Positions 2,799-34,166 are shown, counted from the first letter of the stretch. The stretch is 64,000 bases of DNA from a virus (IMGVR_UViG_3300022594_000001); one strand, 5' to 3'. Made by a program: numbers and translations. The notes: generated from the letters alone by a model not told the origin.

Positions 2799-3989
2799 AT
2801 GAAGACTGCTGACAAACTACTTAACGTTTTAGTAAAAAATCATAGCGAGAATCTCAACAATTCTTTGCCGTATAAGGATGCACGAATTTTACATAGCTTG
2901 TGTAAGAGCATTAACGGTGATACTTTTATTACTGAAAATCAAGCAAAGCTGTTAATTAAAATTTTTAAAGAAAATCAAAAGGTATTAAAAGTGCTTGACG
3001 ATGAATTTGCAGATATAGTTGCTGATCCTACGTGGTCTCAACCATTTCGTCCTCAGGACACAACTAAAAAAGTATACATTGGAAAAATCAATGATGATGC
3101 TGAAGCCATTGTCATCGAATTTGCATATTCTTCCTCTATTCGCAAAAAAGTGCAGTCACTAACAAAGACTGTTTCCGGAATGGCCCAGGTACAAAGTGGC
3201 AAAATGTTTTATGCCGACTTCACTGAAAAGAACATTGTTACTATTGTTGACGAGCTTAAAGAATTTAATTTTGTTATCGAAGAAAGAGTGAAAAATTTCT
3301 ACGATACCATCAAATCTTGGGACAAAAATGTGGTAAGGGATCAGTTCCTATTAACGAACATTGTACACGATACCTTCCAAAAACAAATTACTGCAGACCT
3401 CGGTATTGACACTGCGATTGATCAAACCATCATTTCTGACCGTAGTAACCGGTATCAATATTTTACCGAAAAAACCGAAAAAAATCCGGAAAATTTGACT
3501 GAAAAAATTGCCTTACGAAATTCATCTAAAATTTGGATTGACAAGAATGCCACACCACTTGAAGAAATTTTTGAAAGTTTAACTGAACTAAAAAGATTAC
3601 CAGCACTTATTGTCTTTGACTCATTCGACTCAAAAGCATGTTCAAAAGAAATGGTAAAAATCAGTGAAATTTTGGAAAAAAATGGAATTTTTGACGACGT
3701 TGGAATTTACTTCAGATTGAACAACGATGAGAGTGGAAAAGTTTTTAATGACCTTATTAAAGATAAAAAGTATAATTGTAAGTTAACATCTACTACAAAA
3801 ATTGTAGGTGTGCAAAGCGGAAAAATTCCTAAATTTTTGTTAAAAACTGACTGGAAACCAATGAGTGTAATTTCAATTGGTACAGTACTAAGGCATAGCA
3901 AAACGGCAGTGTACGCCAACTGTTGTGATTTAATTATATCGTACACAGACAAGGAACCGATAATCGAGCCAAAAATGATATGGGAATAA
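2799..3989 (+). CDS. hypothetical protein
   Basis: 396-aa ORF overlapping uvsW start. Confidence 0.85.
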   Translation: MKTADKLLNVLVKNHSENLNNSLPYKDARILHSLCKSINGDTFITENQAKLLIKIFKENQKVLKVLDDEFADIVADPTWSQPFRPQDTTKKVYIGKINDDAEAIVIEFAYSSSIRKKVQSLTKTVSGMAQVQSGKMFYADFTEKNIVTIVDELKEFNFVIEERVKNFYDTIKSWDKNVVRDQFLLTNIVHDTFQKQITADLGIDTAIDQTIISDRSNRYQYFTEKTEKNPENLTEKIALRNSSKIWIDKNATPLEEIFESLTELKRLPALIVFDSFDSKACSKEMVKISEILEKNGIFDDVGIYFRLNNDESGKVFNDLIKDKKYNCKLTSTTKIVGVQSGKIPKFLLKTDWKPMSVISIGTVLRHSKTAVYANCCDLIISYTDKEPIIEPKMIWE

Positions 3990-9602: not shown

Positions 9603-10694
9603 ATGCAAAAAATCTCAACATATTTATATCCAAACAGGATACAACTATTAGCCGATTTGGCGGGCTTCAATGTGGAGTATACAAACGTGTATCAAAGAAC
9701 AGTAAAGATTTATCAGGGCGTTGATAATGTTCTAGAATTTGACATCAAGAACGCAGACGAGAAGCGAATAGAATTAGTTACGAGCCCAGTAATTACAGAT
9801 ATTGCATTAAACGTTATGGATGCAAGCGGTAATGCCCTACCAACTAGTCCATATACTGTAACACCTAGCACAACAATCACAGGCATTGCAACTGTCACAA
9901 TTCCTAGCGCAGATTTAGAAGGGTTAACCTCTCAATTTTTAACGTATAGTGTAACTGCTACAAAAGATACAGCTACTATTCCTTTATACGGAGATAGTAG
10001 ATTTGGATTAAATGGAACAATTGAGTTAATCACCGATGCTATGCCAAAAGCTCGTCCTTCGAGAGTTATAAAAGACTTTGCAGCAGAAATCGATTTGCAA
10101 GGACGCCCAATTTATCATAGCAGTAGCATTCCTGCAAAATTCTATGAAGCAGTAAAAACTGAAACTTTGTCATTTGATATTCACGTAACTGGATTTGTAG
10201 GTTCAATTTGGATTGACGCAGCAACCAGTGATACAATTAGTGTTGAATCATGGAGGGCTGCTGGACGCCCATTCGGAACTTGGATTTGGAGTGGAGACTT
10301 GTTTACTGGTACTATACCATTTGCAACAACAGTTCCAGTAGGCGACTACGCTTATTTTAGAGTATCATATCAAACACCTACCTTTAACGGAATGGGTGCT
10401 ATTTTTGATGTTACACGCACTGGTGGTAATTACAATGTTACTATTAGTAAAGGTGGAACAGGTTACGGCGCTGGCGCAATTATTCGAGTTCCGGGAAGTT
10501 TATTAGGCGGCGTTGATGTTACAAACGACTTGTTCATAAACGTTACTGGATTAGAAGGTGGCGGCAATTCTAGCTATGTTGTAAGCTCAATTACAACTAT
10601 AACCCATACAGGAACAGCCGCAGCCGGTACTGGAACTTATACAGTTTCGGGTACTAATTATGCCGGAATAGTTGACTCTGTAACAGTGAGTTAG
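9603..10694 (+). CDS. putative virion structural protein
   Basis: CATAAATA late-type promoter upstream; Thr/Gly-rich beta-type C-terminus. Confidence 0.55.
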   Translation: MQKISTYLYPNRIQLLADLAGFNVEYTNVYQRTVKIYQGVDNVLEFDIKNADEKRIELVTSPVITDIALNVMDASGNALPTSPYTVTPSTTITGIATVTIPSADLEGLTSQFLTYSVTATKDTATIPLYGDSRFGLNGTIELITDAMPKARPSRVIKDFAAEIDLQGRPIYHSSSIPAKFYEAVKTETLSFDIHVTGFVGSIWIDAATSDTISVESWRAAGRPFGTWIWSGDLFTGTIPFATTVPVGDYAYFRVSYQTPTFNGMGAIFDVTRTGGNYNVTISKGGTGYGAGAIIRVPGSLLGGVDVTNDLFINVTGLEGGGNSSYVVSSITTITHTGTAAAGTGTYTVSGTNYAGIVDSVTVS

Positions 10695-14755: not shown

Positions 14756-15826
14756 TTAACCTGGTAATCTTGGTTGTTGTAGAGCAGCTTGTGGTTCTGC
14801 ACTTTGCTCTTCAGGTGGAGCTTCGGCTGGACGTTTTTCATTAGTCCAATATTGTGATAAATTATCTTTAAGTTTTTGCAGTTCTTTTCTTGGATCGTAC
14901 TGTAACTTTTGGATTCCTTCTTCTTCAGCTGGCTCGCCAATTTCTTGAGCGTTTGCTAACCATCCTTTTGATAAATCGTCCCATAGATACGGAAAACGCT
15001 CTTTGATAATTTTTGGATCTACCATGCGATCTAAATTATCGCGGAAGTTAGCAGATTGTGGACTAGTCGATGAGTCAAATTGATATTTTTCTTGATAAGT
15101 CTTACCGCCCAAACGTCCAGTAGTATCTGGCTGCGGATCAACTTTTGGTAGTAGTCCTAATAAAGGGGCTCTGCTACTGTAAGTTTTAAAATTATGATCA
15201 CTGCTACTGTTAGCAGTACAGAATGTGGCACCTTTCCCGTATGCAATAGCAGCAGGACGATTCTGTAGGTAATAAATCTTGTATTCGGGTGTATCAGCAA
15301 GCAATACACTTCTAGCACTCTTTAACATAGCAGCCATCGCAGCAGTTTGACGTACATCTTGTAGTGCTTCTGCATAATGCTGTACCATGTAACGGTGTAG
15401 AGCTTTAACGCCTTTATATTTGCCAATTTCACTATGGCGTGGATCTAACATGTTACGATTCTTTAAAATAGTAAAATCACGCAATGCAGGACCCATTTCG
15501 CCTTCGATGTCTTCCCAGATGTCTGCTCCATTAGAATAGTTCTGAGCAATCCACATATGGTATTGTCCGTTACGTCCGTAAACAATACCCTCGTAACCTT
15601 GGCGTTCGATTTTATCTAATTGCTCAACAAACCACTTAGCAACATCTTCGTCGGGCATTTTATTGAACTTATTTTGCAATGCATAATTCATAGTAGGGCT
15701 TGGATCAGTACGCAATCCATTGGCAATACCTGCAACAAGATTCTTGTTTGCAAGTACATTAGAGCCGCCCTTACTAACGGCATTTTCGTCAAGTCTTACT
15801 GACTCAAAAAGTTCTCTTAAAAACAT
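14756..15826 (-). CDS. putative head-internal protein
   Basis: N-terminus MFLRELFE, capsid-targeting-like. Confidence 0.65.
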   Translation of the reverse strand: MFLRELFESVRLDENAVSKGGSNVLANKNLVAGIANGLRTDPSPTMNYALQNKFNKMPDEDVAKWFVEQLDKIERQGYEGIVYGRNGQYHMWIAQNYSNGADIWEDIEGEMGPALRDFTILKNRNMLDPRHSEIGKYKGVKALHRYMVQHYAEALQDVRQTAAMAAMLKSARSVLLADTPEYKIYYLQNRPAAIAYGKGATFCTANSSSDHNFKTYSSRAPLLGLLPKVDPQPDTTGRLGGKTYQEKYQFDSSTSPQSANFRDNLDRMVDPKIIKERFPYLWDDLSKGWLANAQEIGEPAEEEGIQKLQYDPRKELQKLKDNLSQYWTNEKRPAEAPPEEQSAEPQAALQQPRLPG

Positions 15827-20410: not shown

Positions 20411-21130
20411 TTCTGAGTCTTCTTGAGCACGGCGCACTCGACGTATGCTCTTGTACTTGTTCATAAAGGTAATAGGGCGTGTTTTGTTGCAGAGTAAATC
20501 AAACTCACGCTCAGTTAACATTTCATTTTTAATCACTAGTTCACGCTCACTTAGCGGAACAATATGACACAGGGGCTGTCCATGTTTAATCATGCTGCTG
20601 CCTTTGCTAGTATCGATTAACATGTTTACATTGGTGCTGTAGTTGTAGTGGAAATCAATAGTGCCAAGCATGACTTCCCAACTTTGTTCTTCTAGTTGAT
20701 CCCAGTAGACAGGCATCATAGTCCAGTAAACGTCCTTCTCACTGACAAAGCGCCAAGGGCTAGCAATCTTCATATTAATCTTATTAGGTTTAAATCCACA
20801 GCGCAGCTCAACTTCTTGATAGTCGTTAGTAGTGATTAAATCGCTAAACTGATTAGCAATGCCACCTTGTCCATTAGTACTGATAGCTAAATCAGTCCAC
20901 ATGGGAATAATCAAACCTTGCCCATAATGATCCTGTATGCCTACACAGTTTTTAATAGTCTGTGACAAATGGGTTGATTCCCAATTAACACTACTTTTAG
21001 CAGCAGCTTTCCACCATTCAGGAAAGAACTTGTTAGCCTTTTGGATTGGTGCATATTCGTAAACATGCGAAAATTTTTCACTGACATAGCAGTGTACGGT
21101 TAGTTTAGGTTTGCGGAAAAAGAATATCAT
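20372..21130 (-). CDS. hypothetical protein (possible beta-barrel/dUTPase-like fold)
   Basis: 252-aa ORF, IPMWTD, IKHGQPLCHIVP; AATAAGTA upstream. Confidence 0.6.
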   Translation of the reverse strand: MIFFFRKPKLTVHCYVSEKFSHVYEYAPIQKANKFFPEWWKAAAKSSVNWESTHLSQTIKNCVGIQDHYGQGLIIPMWTDLAISTNGQGGIANQFSDLITTNDYQEVELRCGFKPNKINMKIASPWRFVSEKDVYWTMMPVYWDQLEEQSWEVMLGTIDFHYNYSTNVNMLIDTSKGSSMIKHGQPLCHIVPLSERELVIKNEMLTEREFDLLCNKTRPITFMNKYKSIRRVRRAQEDSESKCPFNWLNISK

Positions 21131-22900: not shown

Positions 22901-23578
22901 TTACAATCCCCTACTATCCGGTGGTCCAGTTCTGCGTACAGCATGAATGCCCTTTGACAAGGGTTTATTATTGTGACGTTTAGTTAATGCAGGGTTAGAA
23001 CTAGTCTTAAGTCTAGCAGCCAAGTGTTGATCTTTTAATTCTTCATAGTTAGGTTGTTTTCTTAAGTGCCGCCAAACAGCAGTCTTCTTTACTAAAGATC
23101 CGATCTTATCTACTATCTCAGGCAATTGATACCCATTAGTATACAAGTTAACAATCTTAGCGCCTATTTCTGGAGTAACTTTGAAATTAACAAGACCATC
23201 AGGTTCTGCTCGTCGTAAAGACATTACTCTATAAAATTCCTCATCCCCTATCAACTTTCTAATTAGATAATGCACAGTAGCAGCTTGGTTGTAGCCATAT
23301 TCTTTTTCTATTTGTGATAGCGAAGCGCCTGATAAAAACAATTTAACAATACGATCACGATCTTCATCAGTTAAGGCACGTGTTGTCGACACTATTTTGC
23401 CTTTACGATCAGGATAGTATTTTCTAAGAATATGATCAACACTATTTACTGTCATACCTAGTGCAGCAGCAATTTCACGTTGCTGCTTTCCTTGATCCCA
23501 CAGGCCCTTAATCCGATCAACTGTAGCTGGGTCAGTCGTAACAGTTGGGCCTTCAGATATAATTTCGAAAATCTTCAT
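22901..23578 (-). CDS. triple helix-turn-helix protein
   Basis: MKIFEIISE then three repeats of I..L(W/F/Y)..G....EI....G. Confidence 0.7.
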   Translation of the reverse strand: MKIFEIISEGPTVTTDPATVDRIKGLWDQGKQQREIAAALGMTVNSVDHILRKYYPDRKGKIVSTTRALTDEDRDRIVKLFLSGASLSQIEKEYGYNQAATVHYLIRKLIGDEEFYRVMSLRRAEPDGLVNFKVTPEIGAKIVNLYTNGYQLPEIVDKIGSLVKKTAVWRHLRKQPNYEELKDQHLAARLKTSSNPALTKRHNNKPLSKGIHAVRRTGPPDSRGL

Positions 23579-24529: not shown

Positions 24530-24576
24530 AGCCCCGACCGTTGAAATCTTTGAAACCTTTCAGTCGCTCCGGGGCT
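24530..24576. repeat. AGCCCC-N35-GGGGCT cassette
   Basis: TAGCCCCG..CGGGGCTA arms. Confidence 0.85.
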
Positions 24577-24654
24577 AGGTCCACAAGCTCGACACACAGC
24601 CCCACAAGAGCAGCGGTTGCTGCTGGCGATAAGGTATGGCTCTGCACAGCCGTT

Positions 24655-24690
24655 AAAAAGCCCTACAAGCTATTAACTGCGTGTAGGGCT
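24655..24690 (-). terminator. terminator downstream of the 24713-25078 gene
   Basis: AGCCCTACA..TGTAGGGCT then T5 on minus strand. Confidence 0.7.
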
Positions 24691-24712
24691 AGTAGGCTAT
24701 GCTAGTGCTAGC

Positions 24713-25078
24713 TTAGTGTAAGCGTAGCTTGCTTAGGAGTGCGTCCGTTGCCCGTTTAGCTTGTGCATCAGCGCCCTGTGCGCTTACAATGTGTTGCGTA
24801 ATGTCTAGCTCTGCACTGCCTGCTAAGTCTGCTACATGCTTTAACAGTGTGTCCATTACTGCACTTGCGCCAGCGTTCAGCTTTAACTGTGCTTCTAGCA
24901 TATTAGCCATGTGCATTTGTATGTGTTGCTCGTAGTCGTGTGCATAGTTTGTAGCAATCCACTCTGCTACTTCTACTTCGTCTTCTAGCTCTTTAACAAA
25001 AATAGCCAGCGTAATCATCTTGTTGTGCTCGTGTGCTTGCCCAATAAACGCTTTTTTAAGTTCCGCAGTTGTAGTCAT
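24713..25078 (-). CDS. early hypothetical protein (TC/CC-free coding strand)
   Basis: GGAGCG RBS, TGnTATACT promoter, terminator. Confidence 0.85.
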   Translation of the reverse strand: MTTTAELKKAFIGQAHEHNKMITLAIFVKELEDEVEVAEWIATNYAHDYEQHIQMHMANMLEAQLKLNAGASAVMDTLLKHVADLAGSAELDITQHIVSAQGADAQAKRATDALLSKLRLH

Positions 25079-25222
25079 CTTGCGCTCCTAGTAGTTGCAC
25101 TGCCCGTTGCAGTATTACAAGTATAACACCTTTTGTTAGTTGTGCAAAAGTCGTTTGTTGTATTTGTGCAACATGTGTTAGCCATACGCTAGTTGTTCAC
25201 GTTATACCTCGGGGCAGCAGTT

Positions 25223-25353
25223 AGCCCCAATGGGCAAAAGTAAACAGCAGCGTTGCGCAGCATTGGGGCTAAACCCCAATGAGCGCAGCTAACACATTGT
25301 CATTGGGGCTCAGCGTTAGCCCCTGGGTGCATTCTGCAGTAGTCTCTGTGGCT
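25223..25353. repeat. three tandem AGCCCC/GGGGCT cassettes
   Basis: Spacers 36, 27, 24 nt; TTAGCCCCAATG/CATTGGGGCTAA 12-bp arms. Confidence 0.8.
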
Positions 25354-25371
25354 TATACGTCGTGCAGAGTC

Positions 25372-25400
25372 AAAAAAAACCCGGAGTATTAGTCCGGGCT
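25372..25400 (-). terminator. terminator
   Basis: CCCGGA..TCCGGG then T8 on minus strand. Confidence 0.7.
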
Positions 25401-25438
25401 GTAAAAGTTGCCTTAGCGCAACTAGGAGGGTAAACTTG

Positions 25439-25615
25439 TTATGCTTCGCCTTCTATGCGTAGCATTATTAATCCTGCAAACATCAAGCAACAGCCGCCTA
25501 GGCTAACGAAGAAACTACCAAACACTTGCCAGTTGTTTAGTGCTGTCTCTACCCCGCCTACGCCACCAAATGCAATCAATAAACCTAGTAACAATACTGC
25601 TCCGCCTTTAGTCAT
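25439..25615 (-). CDS. small membrane protein (58 aa)
   Basis: AAGGAG RBS; two hydrophobic segments; below ORF-track cutoff. Confidence 0.7.
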   Translation of the reverse strand: MTKGGAVLLLGLLIAFGGVGGVETALNNWQVFGSFFVSLGGCCLMFAGLIMLRIEGEA

Positions 25616-25616
25616 A

Positions 25617-25778
25617 TCAAACTCCTTGTGGTGTTGTTAAAATAATTGTACGCTTAAACACACGCTCGTCAATGTCTATTAGCCTACTACGTCTAATAGC
25701 CTGCTTGCGACTAGGCGCCCAAATTTCTACGCAAACTGTACGACTAGCAAGTGCAATGGCAATAGTGTATTTGTTCAT
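25617..25778 (-). CDS. small basic protein (53 aa), leaderless
   Basis: TTGCAC-16-TATACT then 6 nt to ATG. Confidence 0.55.
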   Translation of the reverse strand: MNKYTIAIALASRTVCVEIWAPSRKQAIRRSRLIDIDERVFKRTIILTTPQGV

Positions 25779-25884
25779 GTAGCTAGTATACAGTCATTTT
25801 GAGCGTGTGCAACAATTATTTTTGTCTGTTGTAAAGTCACACGCCGCTGCGGTAGTTGCAGATTGGGCAGCTGGGGCTATGCTA

Positions 25885-25931
25885 CGCCCCACGGAGGCGA
25901 TTTCGCATTCAAGATTTCACCAGGTGGGGCT
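25885..25931. repeat. CGCCCC-N35-GGGGCT cassette
   Basis: GCCCCAC..GTGGGGC arms; extra GGGGCT at 25873. Confidence 0.75.
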
Positions 25932-25940
25932 AGCTTAGTT

Positions 25941-25969
25941 AAAAAAATAGCGTAGCCGTGCTACGCTAT
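25941..25969 (-). terminator. terminator
   Basis: ATAGCGTAGC-ACG-GCTACGCTAT then T tract on minus strand. Confidence 0.8.
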
Positions 25970-25982
25970 GCAATTGCTGCTG

Positions 25983-26591
25983 TTAAACAGTAAGGCTTTG
26001 CTTTTGTGCGTTAAGCTGTACAATGCTGTCTAGCGCAATTGTGCGCACTTGCACTGTATGCAGTACGTCGTGCGTTTTGTTATGCACTACATTTGTCCCC
26101 GCTAGTAAGTCCTTTGCTGCGCTAGCTGTTAGCAAGGCTGCTACTTGTTGCTTAGTTGCTAGCGTGTTGTCAATAAACAACAAGCTATTAGCTGTGTTGT
26201 AAATTGCAAACAAATAAAACTTAGTTGCGTCTGTTTTGTGTTGCACTAAACTAAAAGTACTAGTGTGTGCAAAGTAATTGTCTTGCTGCTCAAACCCCGC
26301 AACGTTTTGTGCAGCATTATCTGCAATTTGTGCGGCTGTGCGCTTAACTGCTGCTGCGTAAACGTTTTTAAAATCGTTAACGTTGTTAAAAAGCTGTATG
26401 CTAGCTTGTGTAACTTTTTGCACGTTAACTGCTTTGTGCGCTGCTGCTGTTTTTACTTGCGTAACTTGCAGTACGCTTGCTAGTGTTATGCCGCGCACGT
26501 TTTGCAGTAGTTGCGCTACTTGCTGTGCGGTAATTGTGTTGTTGTTTGCACGTTGTTGCAATGCTTGCTGTGCTGTTGCTAGTGTTAACAT
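25983..26591 (-). CDS. early hypothetical protein (TC-free coding strand)
   Basis: GGAGCG RBS, GGTGTTATAGT -10, terminator; 202 aa with no P/W/C. Confidence 0.85.
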   Translation of the reverse strand: MLTLATAQQALQQRANNNTITAQQVAQLLQNVRGITLASVLQVTQVKTAAAHKAVNVQKVTQASIQLFNNVNDFKNVYAAAVKRTAAQIADNAAQNVAGFEQQDNYFAHTSTFSLVQHKTDATKFYLFAIYNTANSLLFIDNTLATKQQVAALLTASAAKDLLAGTNVVHNKTHDVLHTVQVRTIALDSIVQLNAQKQSLTV

Positions 26592-26743
26592 TTTGCGCTC
26601 CTAGTTGTTGCTGTGCTTTATTGCACGTAGTAACTATAACACCATTTTTGCGTTTGTGCGCATTTTTTTTAAATTATTTTTGTTGTATTTGCGCAACACG
26701 CATAGCCGTGCAGCAATAAAGTTGATGAATTTATTAAGGTTCC

Positions 26744-26901
26744 GGGGCTGTGCATAGCCCCACAGGGGACCTCTAAGATATCAGATCGATCGCTGCGGGG
26801 CTAACCACACGTTAGAAACCTAGGCGAAGAAAATCAATTTGCGGGGCTAGCTACGCCCCAGTCTCAGCAGCGGCTGCGTAGCAGAAATTCAGAGTGGGGC
26901 G
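26744..26901. repeat. cassette cluster in divergent promoter region
   Basis: Units 26756/26797 (35 nt) and 26854/26896 (36 nt); extra GGGGCT at 26744 and 26843. Confidence 0.8.
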
Positions 26902-26942
26902 GATCCCCGGAGGCAATGTTGAAGTAACCTCCGCGGCAGTTG

Positions 26943-26970
26943 TTGACAGGTGTGCTTTTGGTGTTATACT
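26943..26970 (+). promoter_or_regulatory. early promoter
   Basis: TTGACA-16-TATACT with TTTTGGTGT extended -10, a motif shared with promoters at about 25120, 26635, 32340, 33375, 33790, 47215. Confidence 0.8.
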
Positions 26971-27000
26971 ATGAGTGTTATTAACTAACTAGGAGCGTGT

Positions 27001-27264
27001 ATGTACTGGGTTAAAACAGAAGTAAGCAGTTTTGAAGACGGACGCAAGTTGCTAGCCACATGCGAAACACTTGATGCTGCGATACAAGAGTGTGCGGAGT
27101 GGGCAGAATATGACGATGTGCGTGTTTGGGTAGAAGATCAACATGGCGGAATCGTTCACGAGTTTGAAGGTTACGCAGATGCGGTGGAGTTCTTGTATCC
27201 TGAAGAAGACGACGGACAACCTACAGAGTTAGAAGAATGGATGGACTTTGATCCAGATTGTTAA
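27001..27264 (+). CDS. small acidic early protein
   Basis: 26/87 D+E; C-terminal DDGQPTELEEWMDFDPDC; GGAGCG RBS. Confidence 0.85.
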   Translation: MYWVKTEVSSFEDGRKLLATCETLDAAIQECAEWAEYDDVRVWVEDQHGGIVHEFEGYADAVEFLYPEEDDGQPTELEEWMDFDPDC

Positions 27265-27283
27265 TACAATCTAACTAATCTAC

Positions 27284-27307
27284 AAGCAGGATTCGTCCTG
27301 CTTTTTT
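27284..27307 (+). terminator. terminator
   Basis: AAGCAGGA-TTCG-TCCTGCTT then T tract. Confidence 0.85.
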
Positions 27308-27639
27308 ATTTGTCACAAAGAGCCCCAAGTAGTTCTCTGCTGTAGTTCGCAGCAGTTTGGGGCTCTAGTCTTTTATTCTCCTAAAAGTCTCCGGATTCTC
27401 CAAAGCCCCACGGGAGCGCACATGATGAATTCATCTTTGTCGTTCGGGGCTATAGACGTAAGTTGTTGATTTATATAGACCGGTATTCTTAGCCCCGGAT
27501 CTGAATTCAGATGAATTCATCATCGCATCGGTGGGGCTAGGCGGTTTCCTGCAATCTATAATCTACTAAACAGCGGGGCCAGCCCCACCTACAGTGTGCG
27601 ACGCATACTTAGATTCTTGAGGCTCTGTGCAAAAAGATG

Positions 27640-27667
27640 TTGACAAGATCTAATTTTCTTTTACAAT
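27640..27667 (+). promoter_or_regulatory. orphan sigma70-type promoter
   Basis: TTGACA-16-TACAAT, no ORF downstream. Confidence 0.55.
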
Positions 27668-27780
27668 ACACATATGCAGTAGCGAAGCTCTGACTATAAT
27701 TTCTTTAGCCCCACTTACTACACATGCTGCTGCCCATGGGGCTCTGCGTAATACTAGTGAAAGCCATGACTAAAGTTTTC

Positions 27781-27845
27781 TTGACAGCAGCTTTTTTGCG
27801 TGTAAAGTTAGCAATACAGCAGCAATGCATAGATCTTTAAAAATT
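27781..27845 (+). promoter_or_regulatory. orphan promoter followed by boxA-like element
   Basis: TTGACA-16-TAAAGT then GATCTTTAAAAATT. Confidence 0.45.
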
Positions 27846-28061
27846 CATACAGAGGTAATTTTTGATGCTCAATCGGCTCGAGTGGGGCTTTAGACTAGCC
27901 TCGTTTGCAGCCACGTGGTCACATGCAGCAGGGTGGGGCTGTAGCCGTACGCAGGATATCGTTGAATAAATTCAACCTGCCCGGGGCTGTTAGTAAGTGC
28001 TTACTAACTTAGTAGCCGTGCGTTTTGGTTTATGGTTTCGATCATTCAGAGACGGGGTTGA

Positions 28062-28136
28062 TGGTCCGCCCTCCAGGAATCGAACCTGGATCCACAGCTT
28101 AGAAGGCTGCTGCACTGTCCATTGTGCTAAGGGCAG
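28062..28136 (-). tRNA. tRNA-Arg (UCU)
   Basis: Full cloverleaf, CT-TCT-AA loop, TTCGATT, encoded CCA. Confidence 0.95.
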
Positions 28137-28137
28137 A

Positions 28138-28212
28138 TGGTGGGCCAACTAGGAATTGAACCTAGACTCAATCGATTATGAGTCGACTGCTTTACCATTA
28201 AGCTATTGGCCC
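28138..28212 (-). tRNA. tRNA with CAU anticodon, probably Ile2 (lysidine type)
   Basis: Cloverleaf, GACTCATAATC arm as in ileX-type tRNAs, G1-C72 pair, encoded CCA. Confidence 0.9.
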
Positions 28213-28218
28213 AGGTTC

Positions 28219-28470
28219 TTATAGCTCGTAGGGCATTAACCCATCGTCTATCAAGTCTTCAATACGGTCTTCACGTTCTACATACTCAGCTTCTAAGTCG
28301 TCTGGCTTCATGTTGTTGTACTGTATGAAACCATTACCCTGTATGATATCAGCAAGGAAGTCGTAACTCCCCTCGTCGATATTCGTGAGTATTGTTCGGA
28401 TATCTTGCGCAGTCAAGCGTTCAATTACCTGCTCGCGTGTTAAGTCCTTGTAGAACTTAGTCGTTGCCAT
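28219..28470 (-). CDS. acidic hypothetical protein
   Basis: 83-aa ORF upstream of tRNAs. Confidence 0.75.
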   Translation of the reverse strand: MATTKFYKDLTREQVIERLTAQDIRTILTNIDEGSYDFLADIIQGNGFIQYNNMKPDDLEAEYVEREDRIEDLIDDGLMPYEL

Positions 28471-28648
28471 TTGTCGTGCTTTCGGATTCGTTTAATAGAT
28501 CTGCAATGCGTACTGCAATCTGTTCTGCTTCGTGCTCATTGTCACGTGCAATAATACACAGGACTCGCCCAGGAGGAGTACTCTTAAAGTCGCGAACTAC
28601 AACTCTGTTAGGTGTGTAGTCCTCGCTGAGCGAATATCCGTACCGCAT
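28457..28648 (-). CDS. hypothetical protein
   Basis: 63-aa ORF, coupled overlaps. Confidence 0.6.
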   Translation of the reverse strand: MRYGYSLSEDYTPNRVVVRDFKSTPPGRVLCIIARDNEHEAEQIAVRIADLLNESESTTNGND

Positions 28649-28956
28649 TAGGCTGCTGCTGTTGCCTTAGAGGCCACCACAGCGGGGCCTTTAGCCTTGC
28701 TAGCCTTAGGTGCCTTCTCTTCGAGATACTCTGCAATTGCTGCCTGTGCTGCTGCATCCTGATACTCGTCCATAGTCTGGATTGCCTTGACTGCTTCGTA
28801 CTTGGGCATTGGTGTGTCAAGCTCACACAAGCGAACGTCTTCGTGACCGTGCTTGTCTAGTACTTTAATTCGCATGATGTCTGTTGCGAATCGGACTTTA
28901 TACTCACCGTCGAGTTTACTTACGCCTACTACATTGAATAGTTTATCTGTTGCCAT
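28648..28956 (-). CDS. hypothetical protein with Ala/Lys-rich tail
   Basis: AGGAAGG RBS; TTGACG-17-TATAAT at 29045-29017. Confidence 0.8.
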   Translation of the reverse strand: MATDKLFNVVGVSKLDGEYKVRFATDIMRIKVLDKHGHEDVRLCELDTPMPKYEAVKAIQTMDEYQDAAAQAAIAEYLEEKAPKASKAKGPAVVASKATAAA

Positions 28957-28980
28957 AATATGCCTTCCTAATAAATTAAT

Positions 28981-29271
28981 TTAAATTGCCTTCGTCCGTT
29001 TTTTTGGACTTGCCTTATTATACAATCGTTTGGCAGCAACGTCAACCTTTTTAGGTATCTTTTGGCTGAACTCGCGATCGATATAATACTCTACGAGCAT
29101 ATTCTTAATCATAATAGTTAAGTCATAGCCCACATCATCTGGGCAGATAAAGCGTACAGGACACTTACCCCACCCTTGATATTCTAGGAACTCAGCGTAC
29201 CATTTGCGGTGATCTTTGTTACGTGGATCGAATGCAACTAAAGGTCGAGCGAAGTATTCTAGTTTGCTCAT
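28981..29271 (-). CDS. hypothetical protein
   Basis: 96-aa ORF, WGKCPVRF. Confidence 0.75.
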   Translation of the reverse strand: MSKLEYFARPLVAFDPRNKDHRKWYAEFLEYQGWGKCPVRFICPDDVGYDLTIMIKNMLVEYYIDREFSQKIPKKVDVAAKRLYNKASPKKRTKAI

Positions 29272-29486
29272 AAGTATTTTTGTAAAACCTCGTTAGCTAA
29301 GTTAGTATCTTGAATCGTATCGAGCATGGCCCACACCATTAAATTCATAACCGTACGGGCTTCTCGTTGTTGATCCTCCGGCAGAGTTGCAATGAAGCTC
29401 ATTACATCATCTGTTGTGTCTAGGCCCCACATAACATCTGCTAGGGCCCGTTGGCGTTTCGTTAGACCATCAATCAAAATATCCAT
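29268..29486 (-). CDS. hypothetical protein
   Basis: MDILIDGLTKRQ, coupled to neighbours. Confidence 0.7.
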   Translation of the reverse strand: MDILIDGLTKRQRALADVMWGLDTTDDVMSFIATLPEDQQREARTVMNLMVWAMLDTIQDTNLANEVLQKYL

Positions 29487-29631
29487 CGTCACGCCCCTTA
29501 TGTTTAGGTCGACGTTGATACGTACCTTTCTTTGGCTCTTCCTTCTTTGGCCAGAACGGAGAGTCATCTTGGAAAAGTACACGATGAGCGCGAGTCTTTT
29601 TGCGCTGTGGAACTTGTTTCAAATGCATCAT
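29470..29631 (-). CDS. ArfA-like ribosome-rescue factor candidate (53 aa)
   Basis: SPFWPKKEEPKKGTYQRRPKHKG resembles the ArfA core; TTGACT-17-TATAAT upstream. Confidence 0.45.
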   Translation of the reverse strand: MMHLKQVPQRKKTRAHRVLFQDDSPFWPKKEEPKKGTYQRRPKHKGRDDGYFD

Positions 29632-29672
29632 GTTAGTATATATCCAACGTCGTTCAAAATTGTATTATACAC

Positions 29673-29825
29673 TCAAAGCAAGCGATAGTCAAGTGGGCTA
29701 TTGTGATAGGCAGCTTGTAGTTCAAACTGATCTACACCGTATGCTTGAACAGTGTCTATGACTGCTTGTACGTAATCGCATCCCAACAACATAAGTTGTT
29801 TCATGTGTGCTACTGCTTGGTTCAT
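29673..29825 (-). CDS. small hypothetical protein
   Basis: GGAGCGCGAA RBS, TTGACC-16-TATAAT. Confidence 0.7.
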   Translation of the reverse strand: MNQAVAHMKQLMLLGCDYVQAVIDTVQAYGVDQFELQAAYHNSPLDYRLL

Positions 29826-29897
29826 TTCGCGCTCCTTTTTGTTAAACAATGTGTATATTATACAGCCAAAATCCAAAAGGTCAACCAAAATATTTCT

Positions 29898-29933
29898 AGC
29901 CCCACAGGCTTATTCAAGGCAATCTGTGGGGCT
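29898..29933. repeat. AGCCCC-N24-GGGGCT cassette
   Basis: TAGCCCCACAG/CTGTGGGGCTA 11-bp arms. Confidence 0.85.
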
Positions 29934-29942
29934 ACTCTAGCC

Positions 29943-30035
29943 AAAAAAAAGCCCTAGCATACCGGGAGCGAATCGGGTTTATAGCTAGGGCTTACCACTA
30001 CTAAGGGCTTACCGGGAGCGAATCGTTGGGCCCTT
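29943..30035 (-). ncRNA. tandem-hairpin 3'-UTR RNA/terminator with anti-RBS loops
   Basis: Two stems each enclosing CGAUUCGCUCCCGGUA; second ends in U8. Confidence 0.6.
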
Positions 30036-30054
30036 TACCACACATGTTGCGATC

Positions 30055-30957
30055 TTAGTGTCGCATACACGTTACCTGGGCAGTAGCTTGCCAGTTGCTA
30101 GGCAAACTCTTGCGCAAATCTGCTACCTTAAGAACCATACGCAAAGACAACTCTCGCATCTTGTTCTTATTTAGATCGATAAAGTCTACGATCTCTTGCT
30201 TCTGAGCATCATCAAACTCGTATACATCAAGCATGCCGTCGCCTACAATTTGCTTGATACGCAGCATTTTTTCACGGGTTGTATCTATAGTCAAGTCCAG
30301 GTAGTGACAACGCGACTCTAGGGCTTCTAAGTGATCACGCAGCTTACGCGATTTAACGTGATCGAACTTGATGTTTGTGATAAAGATTGCCCCACCCGCA
30401 AACTCGAACGAGTTGGGTACGGCTTCGTCTTTGAGCGCACGTGAGTCCGTGTTCCAACAAATGACTCGTTTCTTGCTGCTGTCTAAGGCTGCTTTAAGAA
30501 TGTTCAGCGACAAGTCGTCAAGCAGGACGCTATCGCAGTCATCGAAGACAAGGATGCATTTACGATCCTTATACTCATAGAGTTTTTTGTACAGACCCAA
30601 GGCACTCATAGCCCCTTTGACAATCTCGTACTTCTTGAGCTTTGAGTCATTGGCTACGTCTGCGAATACGTCGTGTTTCGATAACACTGTTTCAACACCA
30701 TAGCTCTTGCCAACCCCGGGCGGGCCTGAGACAATCATAGCCCGAACGTGTCCGGCTTTACATGCTCGAGTCATGTCGTCTAAGATGCTAAACCTCGCTC
30801 GTAGACGCTCGATAATCTCGGCATCAGTCTCATGGCTAAGGTCCTTGTCAACTGCTTCGAGTTCAAGACTTCTTACTTCTACTTTAGAAGGCTTGGTGGC
30901 ATTTGCCTGCGTTTCTAAAGCGTTAACCATTTCTAATGTCCATACCTTTCCAACCAT
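30055..30957 (-). CDS. AAA+ family ATPase
   Basis: GPPGVGKS, LVFDDCD, FITN, ALESRC. Confidence 0.85.
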   Translation of the reverse strand: MVGKVWTLEMVNALETQANATKPSKVEVRSLELEAVDKDLSHETDAEIIERLRARFSILDDMTRACKAGHVRAMIVSGPPGVGKSYGVETVLSKHDVFADVANDSKLKKYEIVKGAMSALGLYKKLYEYKDRKCILVFDDCDSVLLDDLSLNILKAALDSSKKRVICWNTDSRALKDEAVPNSFEFAGGAIFITNIKFDHVKSRKLRDHLEALESRCHYLDLTIDTTREKMLRIKQIVGDGMLDVYEFDDAQKQEIVDFIDLNKNKMRELSLRMVLKVADLRKSLPSNWQATAQVTCMRH

Positions 30958-31021
30958 AGTCGCTCCTATAATTATTAATGTAATCCGCTATTATAACAAG
31001 GGCCGAAGCCCTTGTCAAGTT

Positions 31022-31453
31022 TTACCACGAGCTGTGATACTCAAAATCCCAACCCTGTGGAAACTCTTCTAGGATTCGGGCAATGGCTTCTTCGGTTTCA
31101 CGCAAGTCTGCCCAATACCATTCGTCCACTTGATCCGAACCAAAGAAGAAGCCTGATGTTGGAGGCAGCTTACTAGCATCTTTGGTGTCAAGCACTTCTA
31201 GGATCAGCTGTCGCAGGATCTCTAGTTGATCACGCCCGACATAGTAGTTGCCGCAGTCGTCTGTACCGCCCTGCACGTTATCCACAAACCATTTATGGAT
31301 TTGGTTGCTCTTTCGCCAATACATTGCCTCAGCAATAATCTCTTTGACTCGCTTGCCTTCGAGTTCGGGCAAAGCTTCTGCTACCTTTTCGCCAATTTCG
31401 TTTTCGTTGTGCCAAAGAAAACGTTTGGCATTCAAATACATATCAAGTCCCAT
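31022..31453 (-). CDS. early hypothetical protein
   Basis: MGLDMYL, YWRKSNQIHKWF, GFFFGS; GGAGCGAA RBS. Confidence 0.85.
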   Translation of the reverse strand: MGLDMYLNAKRFLWHNENEIGEKVAEALPELEGKRVKEIIAEAMYWRKSNQIHKWFVDNVQGGTDDCGNYYVGRDQLEILRQLILEVLDTKDASKLPPTSGFFFGSDQVDEWYWADLRETEEAIARILEEFPQGWDFEYHSSW

Positions 31454-31518
31454 GTTTCGCTCCTAGGTTAAAGTTGAATTCGTGTGGGCTCTCTCGTTGG
31501 CCCACCCACGTTACTTCA

Positions 31519-31914
31519 TCAGCCTTCCACGCACTGATAATCTTTGTCCCACGCACCAATGCTCAAGTGTGTGTAGAATGCGGTGTCAAAGTAGTCTGTC
31601 ATCGCATCGCTGCGATCGTAATACTTACGACTAGGATTAGCACGACCGGGCGCATTGTGCATGATCTCATTGATCTTTTCAAGCACCATTTGCTCTTCTT
31701 TGTCTGTCCAGTGATCTTTGATCCAGTAAGTGTTAACCTGCACATGACGACGCCCGCCTGTCATGTTCTCGTCAAAGCTGCAGGTACCTTTCAGAATCGT
31801 TACGTCTACGCTAAGGCTACCTGAGCCTTTACGAACGCTAAACTTCCATTTTGGAAAATTAGCTTTGAGTTCTGCACGGATTGCTGACACGTCGTCTGCT
31901 GTAATATATGCCAT
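31519..31914 (-). CDS. LPD29-like domain protein
   Basis: IRAELKANFPKWKFSVR..DAMTDYFD; GGAGCGAA RBS. Confidence 0.6.
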   Translation of the reverse strand: MAYITADDVSAIRAELKANFPKWKFSVRKGSGSLSVDVTILKGTCSFDENMTGGRRHVQVNTYWIKDHWTDKEEQMVLEKINEIMHNAPGRANPSRKYYDRSDAMTDYFDTAFYTHLSIGAWDKDYQCVEG

Positions 31915-31949
31915 TTGGTTCGCTCCAATTGCTGTTGTTGAAGTGTTAA

Positions 31950-32294
31950 TTATACAGTCAGTTCGCCGAATTTAGCTTCCCAACTGGAAATAAATTTAGC
32001 GCCTACATCCAACGAGACGTAGTCGTCGCCTTGCATGCCTTGCTCGCTGTATTCAACGTCAAGTGCAAGGTTATGCTCAATCAAAAAGTGAGTCAAGTCA
32101 CGCAAGAACTGCTTGTCTGTGTAGATCAAACCTGAGTCCTCTGTGTTCCATGTATCTGTGTTAAAGTATACACGCAGTTCGCCAAAGTCTTTCTCCTCAT
32201 TGCAGTAGCCGATCTTCATGTTAGTGATCTCTACAGCTTTGATGTCGCCTGACCAGTAGCCAGTTCCGCTTGTGTTGAAAATTACCTTTTGCAT
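31950..32294 (-). CDS. early hypothetical protein
   Basis: GELRVYFNTDTW, GLIYTD, YSEQGMQG; GGAGCGAA RBS. Confidence 0.85.
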   Translation of the reverse strand: MQKVIFNTSGTGYWSGDIKAVEITNMKIGYCNEEKDFGELRVYFNTDTWNTEDSGLIYTDKQFLRDLTHFLIEHNLALDVEYSEQGMQGDDYVSLDVGAKFISSWEAKFGELTV

Positions 32295-32400
32295 GTTTCG
32301 CTCCATGTGTGTTGCTGCACTATCGCAGTATCATAACTATAACACCAAAAAAGCCAAAATCAAAATTATTTTATCAGTAGTTTCACTAATGTTGTATTTG

Positions 32401-32436
32401 AGCCCCACACTATCGATCAAAACCAAACGTGGGGCT
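32401..32436. repeat. AGCCCC-N24-GGGGCT cassette
   Basis: AGCCCCAC/GTGGGGCT. Confidence 0.85.
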
Positions 32437-32447
32437 AACAAGTCCAC

Positions 32448-32472
32448 AAAAAAAGGGCCCTAAAGCCCTTTC
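32448..32472 (-). terminator. terminator
   Basis: AAAGGGC..GCCCTTT then T tract on minus strand. Confidence 0.75.
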
Positions 32473-32479
32473 AGAATGA

Positions 32480-32608
32480 TCAGTTATCTAGTTCGTACTT
32501 GACCCAGTCTGTCATTTCGTGTACTAACAGATCTGCGTCTGAATCGTACAAGTCATCAAGCTCTTCTAACAGATCTAACTCTTCGTCTTCTGTCATGATG
32601 TTTACCAT
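32480..32608 (-). CDS. very acidic 42-aa protein
   Basis: MVNIMTEDEELDLLEELDDLYDSDAD..; AAGGAG RBS; 16/42 D+E. Confidence 0.7.
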   Translation of the reverse strand: MVNIMTEDEELDLLEELDDLYDSDADLLVHEMTDWVKYELDN

Positions 32609-32640
32609 TTTTTGCTCCTTTGTGGTTAATGGTAGTCAAA

Positions 32641-33339
32641 TTATACAGTCTCTTTGATACGAATAACGAAGCCACTGTAATCTTTTTTGGCACGATGCCC
32701 TTTTACTTTAAGGCCCATCATGCCCACTTTTGGGTCTAAGAAGCGCAAGTCTGTCTCGTCCGCGCTATACATGCCCTTAGGAATCTCATCGTAGACAGCG
32801 GCTACATTCATGCCCGCCTTAAGCGCCTTCTTGACATCTGCATCGTTTGACTCAGCACGGCTGAATGTCAAGTGATAGTTCTTAGGCAAGTTCTTGCGTC
32901 CCAGAACCTTAGTGTAGTCATAGAACTGTACTTCAGGAAAGAGCTCAAACAAGTTAAGTCCAGTCTCGCCCACTTCATACTTTTCCCACGAAAGATCGCT
33001 AGTGCCATTCAAACGGAACACGGGCACCAAGTTCTTCTTCTCGGAGTAATTAATAGCCTTTTGAATGTCCTCTGCTAGCTTGAACATGAACGCAGGACGA
33101 TCTGCAAAGAACTCACGTGTCTTGCGAATACGTGCCTGCTGGATGGTGTTAGTACCGCCATCTTTGAACATACCACCGCGTCCCGCAAGGTTAAGGCATG
33201 CTGCGATACAACCTGCTGTGGCTTTAGGGCATACATTCTTGCCCGACAAGTCGTATGGTGCAAGATGTAGAATCCAAGTTAGATAGCCCTTCTTTTGGCC
33301 CTTGATAGTCTTAGGGTTTCCCTTTGTTAAGTAATGCAT
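32641..33339 (-). CDS. GP88-like protein
   Basis: CPKATAGCIAAC, FRLNGTSDL, FYDYTK; GGAGCGAA RBS. Confidence 0.7.
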   Translation of the reverse strand: MHYLTKGNPKTIKGQKKGYLTWILHLAPYDLSGKNVCPKATAGCIAACLNLAGRGGMFKDGGTNTIQQARIRKTREFFADRPAFMFKLAEDIQKAINYSEKKNLVPVFRLNGTSDLSWEKYEVGETGLNLFELFPEVQFYDYTKVLGRKNLPKNYHLTFSRAESNDADVKKALKAGMNVAAVYDEIPKGMYSADETDLRFLDPKVGMMGLKVKGHRAKKDYSGFVIRIKETV

Positions 33340-33404
33340 AGTTTCGCTCCTATGTGTGTTAAGTTAGAACTAGTATAGCACCAAAAAGATGCTGGTCAAC
33401 CAAT

Positions 33405-33758
33405 TTATATAAAAATTTTACGATTAGTCAAATAAGCCTGCTCTGCTGTGAAGATAGGCTGCTCACCATCTGCATAGACAAAGGTAGAATACTTGTAGGG
33501 ATTGTAAGTTACCGCGATATCGCTAGTGTCACGAATCACTGTATCTACTGCCCCGAACCATTGCCCAACAACACCTGCATGGACATTCTTCTTCTGCTCA
33601 CGTAGAACACGAGCACGACCCGCCTGACTTACACGAAACTGAACATTGTGCAGAGTCACTTCGCTAGCATGTTCAATGACTAGCCCTTTATGTGATCCTT
33701 CAAGCGCCTTGATTGAAAAGACCCGTTTGTGCAAATTATAGTAGACAAATACTCGCAT
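33405..33758 (-). CDS. early hypothetical protein
   Basis: VYYNLHKRVFSI, KKNVHAGVVG, YNPYK; GGAGCGAA RBS. Confidence 0.85.
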   Translation of the reverse strand: MRVFVYYNLHKRVFSIKALEGSHKGLVIEHASEVTLHNVQFRVSQAGRARVLREQKKNVHAGVVGQWFGAVDTVIRDTSDIAVTYNPYKYSTFVYADGEQPIFTAEQAYLTNRKIFI

Positions 33759-33854
33759 GGTTCGCTCCTAGTTAGTATGTCATAAGTATAGCACCAAAAT
33801 ACCAAGAGCAAGAGAAATTTTGCCAGTATTTTCCATGAGTTGCCAAAAAACAAC

Positions 33855-34033
33855 AGTCCCACATGAATCTAGTGCTGCCAATCAATATCATCATGTGGGG
33901 CTAAAGTCAGCCCCAGACTACAGTCAGCAGCAGAGTTTAGATTCCTGGGGCTAAGAACCCCACACTAGACTAGTGATCGATTAATCTGCCCGGGGCGGGG
34001 CTAAAAGAATGGAAACGAGTTTGGTTCAGCCCC
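33855..34033. repeat. three tandem cassettes plus trailing AGCCCC
   Basis: Spacers 36, 32, 35 nt. Confidence 0.85.
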
Positions 34034-34051
34034 ACGAAAATAGATCCAGAG

Positions 34052-34100
34052 TTATCCACAGGTTATCCACAGTTGTAATCTAGCCACAGAGTTATCCACA
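34052..34100 (+). promoter_or_regulatory. three perfect DnaA boxes
   Basis: TTATCCACA at 34052, 34063, 34092. Confidence 0.8.
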
Positions 34101-34166
34101 GTGGCGAAAAAGCCACGTTGTATTCTCGCAACAGTGGCGAAAAAACAACAGTGGCAAAAATACAAC
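34072..34166. repeat. five GTKG-N8-CMAC palindromic units
   Basis: At 34072, 34101, 34117, 34134, 34151. Confidence 0.8.

Follow-up and report, generated by a model that had tools for sequence, protein, structure and literature searches.

The DNA analysed here is a 64,000-nt stretch of IMGVR_UViG_3300022594_000001 (hereafter, the window), which belongs to a pond phage of ~345 kb, a distant relative of Pseudomonas phage PA5oct. The nearest named relatives are this jumbo phage and its kin, with a protein identity of just 50–54%, and a megablast search of the region against GenBank phages gave no match at the DNA level. The sequencing runs containing this stretch are pond, freshwater, and viral metagenomes. 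The replication genes of the window encode a DnaB-like helicase and a superfamily 2 helicase. The part from 23.6 to 34 kb is filled with small genes, predominantly on the minus strand, each with its own promoter of the sigma-70 type, in which the −10 element is often extended (TGnTATAnT); many of the genes are followed by an intrinsic terminator. The gaps between these genes contain a family of short cassettes, in which the hexamers AGCCCC and GGGGCT form inverted arms around a core. The cassette family is real, statistically solid, and clade-specific, and its anatomy is cleaner than that described in an earlier note made from the sequence of the window. The element is new in detail, and its general kind is already known.

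Ten perfect AGCCCC-N24-36-GGGGCT units are present, at exactly the ten positions listed in the earlier note (Table 1), and none appeared in 100 dinucleotide shuffles. Degenerate units exist as well; there are about 12 of them if mismatches are allowed, instead of the nine first counted. The interval of 24.5–34.1 kb holds 15 of the 16 AGCCCC and 20 of the 22 GGGGCT hexamers of the whole 64 kb. Outside it, only strays occur, at 15165 and 21669, as already noticed, and at 20572, which had been missed. Markov models of orders 1 to 3, with the region itself as training sequence, predict fewer copies of both hexamers (GGGGCT, 20 observed vs. 0.9, 3.4, and 7.0 expected; AGCCCC, 15 observed vs. 1.6, 2.6, and 5.1 expected). 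A covariance model was built from 49 units of five genomes and applied, with filters off, to both strands of the whole window. All of its 27 matches at E ≤ 1 are in the interval of 24.5–34.0 kb, with none elsewhere in the window, and the scores are nearly equal on the two strands. The unit ends abruptly at the A/T of the hexamer, outside of which there is no pairing. Unit length ranges from 36 to about 55 bp. The clustering of spacer lengths is real, with groups at 24/25 and 32–36 nt and, in relatives, also at 42/43 nt; the classes of 24 (13 units), 35 (12 units), and 36 nt (9 units) are ~11 nt apart. All units are located between convincing genes, and only positions 27884 and 27935 fall into a doubtful 33-codon frame, as judged by eye.

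A search of Rfam revealed no family matching any unit, even at E ≤ 1. No second family emerged from a scan of IMG/VR with the pattern AGCCCCAC-N20-40-GTGGGGCT, all matches being isolated terminator hairpins of the usual long-stem type on unrelated contigs, and among the matches listed for the 36-bp consensus in bacterial and archaeal genomes, there were ordinary scattered hairpins and one single-copy Ruminococcus hairpin. Given the lack of an Rfam match and of counterparts in the phage and bacterial collections searched, the label of an undescribed element class is fair. An origin of the cassettes from a host repeat is unsupported, since no multi-copy host repetitive extragenic palindromic (REP) element was found among the matches listed from bacterial and archaeal genomes.

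Relatives were searched for in metagenome contigs using the AAA-ATPase encoded at 30055–30957, and 28 loci were found. The L123, L124, L125, L138, and L149 loci, with 83–88% identity of the AAA protein, are syntenic with the window at a DNA identity of ~70% and carry the same cassette family; L124 contains 27 AGCCCC and 14 GGGGCT hexamers and 22 units with no more than one mismatch in 16.8 kb. In the loci with AAA identity of 77% or less, the hexamers are near the chance level, and these loci show no comparable family of inverted repeats with different arms either. Cassette-free sisters include L001 and L128–L135. Thus, the family is specific to a narrow clade.

The GC pairs of the hexamers are identical in 45–49 of the 49 units. 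At position 7, the left arm invariably has a purine and the right arm a pyrimidine, which form A-U in 22 units, G-U in 16, and G-C in 3 and are unpaired in 8. Conservation affects the sequence AGCCCC-R / Y-GGGGC-(T) rather than the complementarity of the arms. Relative to gene direction, the left A is retained in 48/49 and the right T in 35/49 units. The extension of the arms by covarying letters had been taken as an argument for real pairing. In the window, the inward extension does exceed that obtained by permuting partners (34 vs. 20.4, p = 0.002; p = 0.0002 for the 16 best units), but this does not hold in the relatives: L124 has 9 paired positions vs. 15.9 after permutation (p = 0.98), and p = 0.95 for all units outside the window. 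In the alignment of the 49 units, the observed covariation score is reached by 297 of 500 shuffles, and the variable positions 7–10 show no covariation. The covariation on which the argument for pairing relied does not extend beyond the window.

The spacers had been described as unrelated to each other, which is wrong: the cores are paralogous and share a central tetranucleotide. In the window, 8 of 120 pairs of cores are above the 99.5th percentile of shuffles, with 0.6 expected; in L124, 13 of 231 pairs exceed it in the direct and 13 of 231 in the reverse-complement orientation, with 1.2 expected. The words enriched in the 49 cores are TTGA/TCAA (28 vs. 12.4), GAWWTC (13 vs. 1.6), and GCAGC (13 vs. 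1.7). Ten of the 15 units in the 24/25-nt class, from at least five dissimilar sequence groups, have TTGA or the complementary TCAA at core offset 10, which is precisely the middle of the 36-bp unit. When the 36-bp units are oriented by TTGA, five are direct and five are flipped with respect to gene direction, and a loose consensus is common to them. In the 35/36-nt class, an inward-reading TTGA is located 9–14 nt from the arm, often on both sides as TTGA-N6-TCAA. These two positions of TTGA suggest that the unit consists of two bipartite half-sites, each composed of AGCCCC, ~10 nt, and TTGA. The equal use of both TTGA orientations, together with the equal scores on the two strands, points to a function of duplex DNA, not of a single RNA or DNA strand. 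Six-bp palindromes of the restriction type are not a defining feature of the cores, because they are only modestly enriched (31 vs. 20.6, p = 0.02) and L124 shows no such enrichment.

An RNA hairpin on early read-through transcripts could act as a 3′ stabiliser, as a processing site, or as a handle for a protein that binds the AGCCCC/GGGGCU stem. The GC stems reach −10 to −24 kcal/mol, pairing in the window extends past the consensus, the arms are mildly asymmetric with respect to gene direction, and contigs of an RNA library span the units at 25223–25353 and 29898–29933 together with flanking genes. However, these contigs cover promoter and DnaA-box DNA too, so DNA carry-over in the library is possible, and they are no guide to transcription of the units; stretches with little or no coverage are equally uninformative. 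Moreover, covariation is not found in the relatives, and pairing past the hexamer in L124 is, if anything, depleted. The stem of 6–7 bp would close a loop of 24–36 nt, to which the cores add little structure (inner-shuffle z mostly from −0.3 to −2.6, range from +0.5 to −3.0). UUGA and UCAA are equally frequent in the centre, which would be intolerable for an RNA function; G·U and A·C mismatches show no strand bias (2 vs. 3, counted by hand); and the units are downstream of intrinsic terminators. Nor are the units intrinsic terminators themselves, which have a loop of 3–8 nt and a T-run: their loops are 24–36 nt, A follows GGGGCT in 17 of 49 cases, and there is no T-run, whereas the actual intrinsic terminators are just upstream of the cassettes. 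With neither an Rfam match at E ≤ 1 nor covariation beyond shuffles, we regard the RNA hairpin as unlikely. Four further ideas were dropped: a tRNA-like minihelix (no T-loop in the sequence), a G-quadruplex (the alternating G and C tracts would pair with each other), a Chi-like sequence (the hexamers are only intergenic), and a −35 promoter element (no −10 at the right distance).

The placement of the cassettes is regular. Along the coding strand, a gene is followed by its intrinsic terminator, one or more cassettes, a promoter, and the next gene, an arrangement seen in the relatives and in seven gaps of the window. The distance from the T-run of the terminator to the first arm is 9–11 nt in 12 of 16 cases and 13 and 18 nt in the others, and the linkers are unrelated. 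The last arm is followed by a AAAATATTTT-type stretch or by a repeated segment (GTTGT..CAAC..TACTGATAAAAA) and then by the −35 element. The −10 element follows the last arm at distances of 35, 44, 44, 44, 52, 54, 54, 59, 63, 64, 64, 65, 94, 97, and 97; apart from 59, all are near a 10-bp ladder. With only ~6 independent classes, this ladder is a hint, not a result. Elsewhere in the window, strong sigma-70 promoters have no cassettes, and the family is confined to a 10-kb early region bounded by DnaA boxes.

The repeated segment, in its longer form GTTGT..CAAC..ATGGAAA.TACTGATAAAAA, was found between the cassette and the −35 element of several early promoters. Its copies are at 33803–33849 and 32364–32400 of the window, at 3852–3895 of L124, and at 4358–4399 of L125. 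Since it recurs at several promoters, whole terminator–cassette–promoter modules seem to be paralogous.

When the same intergenic slots are compared between genomes, the arms are identical in 140/144 (97%), the cores in 62%, and the flanks in 60%, a figure biased by the preselection of units for good arms. In the single-unit slots B (32401) and C (29898), no more than one letter of the arms is changed in every relative that covers them. The cores of these slots differ: in slot C, the window and L124 have a common core, L125 has a different 24-nt core, and L138 has a 35-nt core; a core of 35 nt also occupies slot B of L149. Between the window and L124, arrays differ by a single unit. A strain variant lacks exactly one unit, that at 26803–26848: position 26806 is joined to 26854 with CTG between them, so that 47 nt are skipped. 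This variant is present in the DNA run X13 at a depth of 34 with long flanks and in the RNA-library run X15. For several genes that lie between slots, the loci fetched from the relatives contain no counterpart.

A variant in the DNA runs X13 and X14 has 28 other letters in place of 168 nt (25615–25784), essentially the 53-codon gene 25617–25778, which amounts to an indel of a gene in the hyperplastic region.

Turnover of this kind can be explained by a selfish or neutral miniature palindromic repeat, similar to miniature inverted-repeat transposable elements (MITEs) or REPs, which spread by copying or gene conversion into the permissive gaps between terminators and promoters. The arms would then be kept for the copying machinery, and the phage would gain either nothing or hot spots of recombination that shuffle early modules, as promoter early stem-loops (PeSLs) do. 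The restriction of the family to one lineage, the paralogous cores at non-syntenic loci and in both orientations, the exchange of cores of different length at fixed slots, the gain or loss of single units, the varying gene content between the cassettes, and the existence of decayed copies all agree with this. Of the features of a MITE, inverted ends are present, and the paralogues in both orientations fit mobility. In contrast, no target-site duplication was noticed by eye in the flanks inspected, and there is no transposase, RAYT, or recombinase among the scanned open reading frames (ORFs) of the window. In addition, the repeat would have to be confined to one 10-kb region despite many other gaps, being absent elsewhere in the 64 kb, and the 9–11-nt offset from the terminator and the central TTGA would need an extra explanation. 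We consider such a repeat possible, although somewhat improbable.

Another explanation would be att-like sites for a phage site-specific recombinase, with inverted binding arms, an asymmetric centre determining polarity, the 36-bp and 47/48-bp classes as partner types, and integron-like swapping of early genes. The attB and attP sites of serine integrases differ by ~10 bp, and the cassettes form two sharp length classes ~11–12 bp apart, with inverted arms round a non-palindromic centre (a TG/CA midpoint in the 36-bp class) that occurs in both orientations. Genes differ between the relatives exactly between the slots, and indels of whole units occur. Nevertheless, no recombinase was found among the scanned ORFs of the window, none of the expected hybrid cores of 30 nt was seen (the intermediates are 32–34 nt), and gene-free back-to-back arrays of 3–4 sites would be unstable. 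The only cassette-to-cassette junction (run X13, 32404 to 25262) has a flank of only 21 nt on one side, is weak, and was discounted. Recombination sites are thus a distinctly doubtful explanation. Another unlikely variant is a dedicated phage system with one specialised, clade-defining protein for reading the invariant arms and the central TTGA, which would mediate either integron-like exchange or insulation 9–11 bp behind every early terminator; in its integron-like version, a recombinase would swap early host-takeover genes, with the 36-bp and 47/48-bp units as its pair of partner sites. The readings are not mutually exclusive, bacterial REPs and bacterial interspersed mosaic elements (BIMEs) being both protein-bound and mobile, and there is a small chance that the cassettes are something else.

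The reading that we tentatively favour, at a probability of roughly 0.38, is that the cassette is a REP/BIME-like double-stranded DNA element composed of paired bipartite half-sites for a putative DNA-binding protein and set in a terminator–cassette–promoter module. The cassette is probably a site acting at the DNA level rather than a stem-loop, and any function is putative. Two mechanisms had been proposed in the earlier note, namely stem-loops and paired protein sites. The second fits better in view of the invariant hexamers, TTGA/TCAA in both orientations, the equal scores on the two strands, and the length classes ~11 nt apart, while the first relied on covariation of the arms, a feature that the relatives do not show. 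The protein-site reading is further supported by the retention of the arms at syntenic slots, by the tight placement behind terminators and ahead of promoters, and by the confinement to the early region. The anatomy of the element, its placement, conservation, strand symmetry, and turnover were observed, whereas the binding of a protein and its effect are inferred. The outer part of the putative half-site would be the invariant AGCCCC-R and its inner part TTGA, ~10 bp inward. Units of the 36-bp class share one TTGA, exactly in the centre, and those of the 47/48-bp class often have it doubled as TTGA-N6-TCAA. A sequence-specific protein of the phage or its host, as a dimer or a higher oligomer, would recognise the half-sites. 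The composite module, which recurs between early genes, consists of an intrinsic terminator, 9–11 nt, one to four cassettes, an A/T-rich UP-like stretch, and a sigma-70 promoter. The most plausible role of a protein bound there would be that of an insulator or roadblock enforcing termination, or of a factor that modulates the following early promoter at a set time. The repeated family could also supply sites for the gain, loss, and exchange of units in this hyperplastic region.

Several observations count against a protein-bound duplex site. No binding protein was identified: Pfam and PHROGs show nothing DNA-binding among the small early proteins. A protein of 225 aa encoded on the minus strand at 22901–23578, with three transposase-type helix-turn-helix (HTH) motifs (HTH_SB and HTH_23/28/38) and no catalytic domain, was rejected as the binder, as it is an orphan that has no homologue in the fetched loci of the cassette-bearing relatives. 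A search of 5.8 billion proteins returned only this protein itself, and none was found in IMG/VR; the strain contigs carrying it are identical to the window and show no microdiversity. The mild asymmetry of the arms with respect to gene direction is not predicted by a perfectly symmetric duplex site. Spacers of 32–34 nt, outside the main classes, occur in 10 of the 49 units, and 5 of the 15 units of the 24/25-nt class have no central TTGA. The IHF consensus WATCAANNNNTTR is present in 0 of 49 cores, which makes the analogy with BIMEs and their RIP subclass architectural only; the Fis consensus is not found in the cores either. Orthology and paralogy inflate the spacing ladders, and with ~6 independent classes, a rough p of 0.04 is obtained. 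Finally, tandem arrays of 3–4 units and the rapid turnover of cores suit a selfish repeat equally well.

The cassettes can be compared with several known systems. CRISPR arrays have identical direct repeats of 23–55 nt, unique spacers, and, usually, cas genes nearby; by contrast, the conserved parts of the cassettes are inverted arms of 6–8 nt, the junctions between units are 0–42 nt, and no cas gene was found among the scanned ORFs of the window. Integron attC sites are 57–141 bp long, with RYYYAAC ... GTTRRRY core sites and IntI nearby. The cassettes share none of this, having AGCCCCR/YGGGGCT arms, units of 36–55 bp, and no integrase among the scanned ORFs. They resemble attC in their short conserved inverted ends, variable centre and length, and location on the 3′ side of gene cassettes, but the genes that they flank keep their own promoters, and the centre is acceptable in either orientation, which argues against a single folded strand.

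Enterobacterial REPs and BIMEs are extragenic multi-copy elements with GC-rich palindromic ends, arranged singly or in tandem clusters; they are associated with RAYT (Y1 HUH) transposases and bound by gyrase or Pol I, and their RIP/RIB subclass binds IHF. The phage cassettes are also extragenic and multi-copy, have GC-rich palindromic ends and a variable or A/T-richer centre, are situated at the 3′ ends of transcription units, beginning 9–18 nt after intrinsic terminators in the window and the relatives, form single or short tandem clusters, and vary in copy number between close relatives. Their palindrome is different, with 6–8 bp per arm vs. 20–40 bp per REP: pairing ends after 6–8 bp, and its mean extension in the relatives is below the permuted value. 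Other differences are the lack of the IHF consensus in the cores, the lack of a RAYT-type transposase among the scanned ORFs of the window, and the occurrence in one 10-kb early region of a phage. The stoperators of mycobacteriophage L5, which are transcription roadblocks, and the dispersed C1 operators of phage P1 are asymmetric sites of 13–17 bp bound by a known repressor in temperate phages. As in these systems, many copies of a short site are scattered over intergenic gaps; unlike them, the cassettes are paired, inverted, with a core of 24–36 bp and no binder known, and the phage looks virulent.

The PeSLs of T4-type phages combine a sigma-70-like early promoter with a terminator stem-loop, are repeated in hyperplastic regions, and mark indels and replacements (PMC2839356, PMC4122927). 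The module surrounding the cassettes is similar, with repeated promoters of the sigma-70 type, terminator hairpins, and paralogous promoter-upstream segments between small non-essential early genes, and gene content varies there; a classic overlap of the PeSL type is at 31018–30990. The AGCCCC cassette itself is a separate third element between the terminator and the promoter, outside the definition of PeSL (PMC4122927), and it lacks a T-run, while its core is large and its ends are conserved. In the pre-early (first-step-transfer) DNA of phage T5, non-coding palindromes and direct and inverted repeats are located beside consensus DnaA boxes (bioRxiv 10.1101/866236). In both cases, the repeats are in the earliest-expressed part of the genome of a large virulent phage, adjoin DnaA boxes, and have a putative function. 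The T5 repeats form three untranslated blocks, the order of which is conserved across T5-like phages (bioRxiv 10.1101/866236), whereas the cassettes are dispersed, with one slot per gap, share only their ends and the central tetranucleotide, and are limited to a narrow clade.

With the cassette, the terminator–promoter junctions of the early region have a third sharply defined component. Giant phages have long stretches of small early genes that have no assigned function and change fast between relatives, and we know of only a few phages, of the T4 type, in which the wiring and reshuffling of such regions have been described. The anatomy is simple and testable, comprising two invariant hexamers and a central tetranucleotide, and natural controls exist in the form of sister phages that have or lack the cassette. 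Binding by a protein would make the cassette a compact, natural insulator of transcription or switch for early genes; mobility would place it among the smallest viral repeat elements known and make it a marker of the movement of early-gene modules.

Table 1. Cassette units and neighbouring features of the early region of the window.
Feature	Positions	Strand	Remark
Perfect unit, 35-nt core	24530–24576		Also matched by the covariance model
Degenerate unit, AGCCCC ... ATGGCT	24598–24641		13 nt after the minus-strand terminator 24659–24690
Perfect unit, 36-nt core, 10-bp arms	25223–25270		AATG/CATT extension
Unit with left arm AACCCC, 27-nt core	25272–25310		AATGA/TCATT extension, as in the neighbour 25223–25270
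Degenerate unit, right arm GTGGCT, 24-nt core	25318–25353		First unit, 18 nt after the minus-strand terminator 25378–25400
Unit CGCCCC ... GGGGCT, 35-nt core	25885–25931		9 nt after the minus-strand terminator 25947–25969
Degenerate unit, AGCCGT ... GGGGCT	26704–26749		First in a tandem array of four units between divergent promoters
Perfect unit, 35-nt core	26756–26802		Top covariance-model score (33.0 on +, 32.1 on −)
Degenerate unit, AACCAC ... GGGGCT	26803–26848		Skipped in the strain variant
Unit CGCCCC ... GGGGCG, 36-nt core	26854–26901		Outer pair altered on both sides
Perfect unit, 32-nt core	27321–27364		After the plus-strand terminator 27284–27303
Perfect unit, 36-nt core with GAATTC	27404–27451		L124 orthologue at 10249
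Perfect unit, 36-nt core with two GAATTC	27491–27538		L124 orthologue at 10161
Unit with right arm GAGGCT, 32-nt core	27581–27624		Core paralogous to that of the unit 33909
Perfect unit, 25-nt core	27707–27743		Downstream of the orphan plus-strand promoter 27640–27667
Unit with left arm AGCCTC, 32-nt core	27897–27940
Degenerate unit, AGCCGT ... GGGGCT	27943–27988		Degenerate arm identical in L124 and L125
Two tRNA genes	28062–28212
Perfect 36-bp unit, 24-nt core	29898–29933		Plus-strand TCAA at the exact centre; 9 nt past the terminator T-run, 13 nt ahead of the −35 of the promoter 29884–29857
Two terminator-type hairpins after the AAA-ATPase gene	29943–30036	minus	Loops share a 15-mer conserved in relatives
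AAA-ATPase gene	30055–30957
Perfect 36-bp unit, 24-nt core	32401–32436		Centred exactly on TCAA; 11 nt past the T-run of the terminator (hairpin 32455–32468)
Unit AGTCCC ... GGGGCT, 12-bp arms, 36-nt core	33855–33902		Promoter-proximal array member adjoining the DnaA boxes
Perfect unit, 32-nt core	33909–33952
Unit AACCCC ... GGGGCT, 35-nt core	33956–34002		Followed by a solitary AGCCCC at 34028
DnaA boxes (three copies of TTATCCACA) and ACAGTGGCGAAAAA-type repeats	34047–34166		Bound the cassette region

At the right edge of the cassette region, the three consensus DnaA boxes are placed inside CAGAGTTATCCACAG / GTTATCCACAG and are accompanied by three ACAGTGGCGAAAAA-type repeats. The boxes are conserved in L124, L125, and L149, where paired TGTGGATAA boxes are found at the equivalent place. 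This cluster may be an origin dependent on host DnaA or a site similar to the injection stop signal (iss) of T5.

The two hairpins behind the AAA-ATPase gene have unusually large loops of 21–25 nt with a common 15-mer, CGATTCGCTCCCGGT, on the coding strand. Hairpins with this 15-mer are also upstream of the slot-C units in L124, L125, and L138, and the 15-mer is present even in the cassette-free relative L001 (3148–3197). It is complementary to GGAGCGAA, the ribosome-binding motif of the early genes.

Two strong sigma-70-type promoters on the plus strand (27640–27667 and 27781–27808) face a gene-free, cassette-rich stretch and the convergent tRNA genes. The second is conserved in L124 (TTGACA ... 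TAAACT). The sole frame downstream of them is the doubtful 33-codon ORF 27865–27966, which crosses two GGGGCT arms.

The plus strand of the minus-strand genes 24713–25078 and 25983–26591 looks markedly poor in GG and GA by eye, and the G4/C4 arms between these genes are more conspicuous for this reason. The 202-aa product of this gene pair has no family match.

The Ruminococcus hairpin mentioned above is a near-identical 36-nt long-stem hairpin (AGCCCCGAAGCAATTATTGATAACTGCTTCGGGGCT) found once per genome in many uncultured Ruminococcus species (L155, L156, L177, L199, L202, and about 20 other loci). It is unrelated to the phage cassettes, and its sequence conservation suggests a functional element there.

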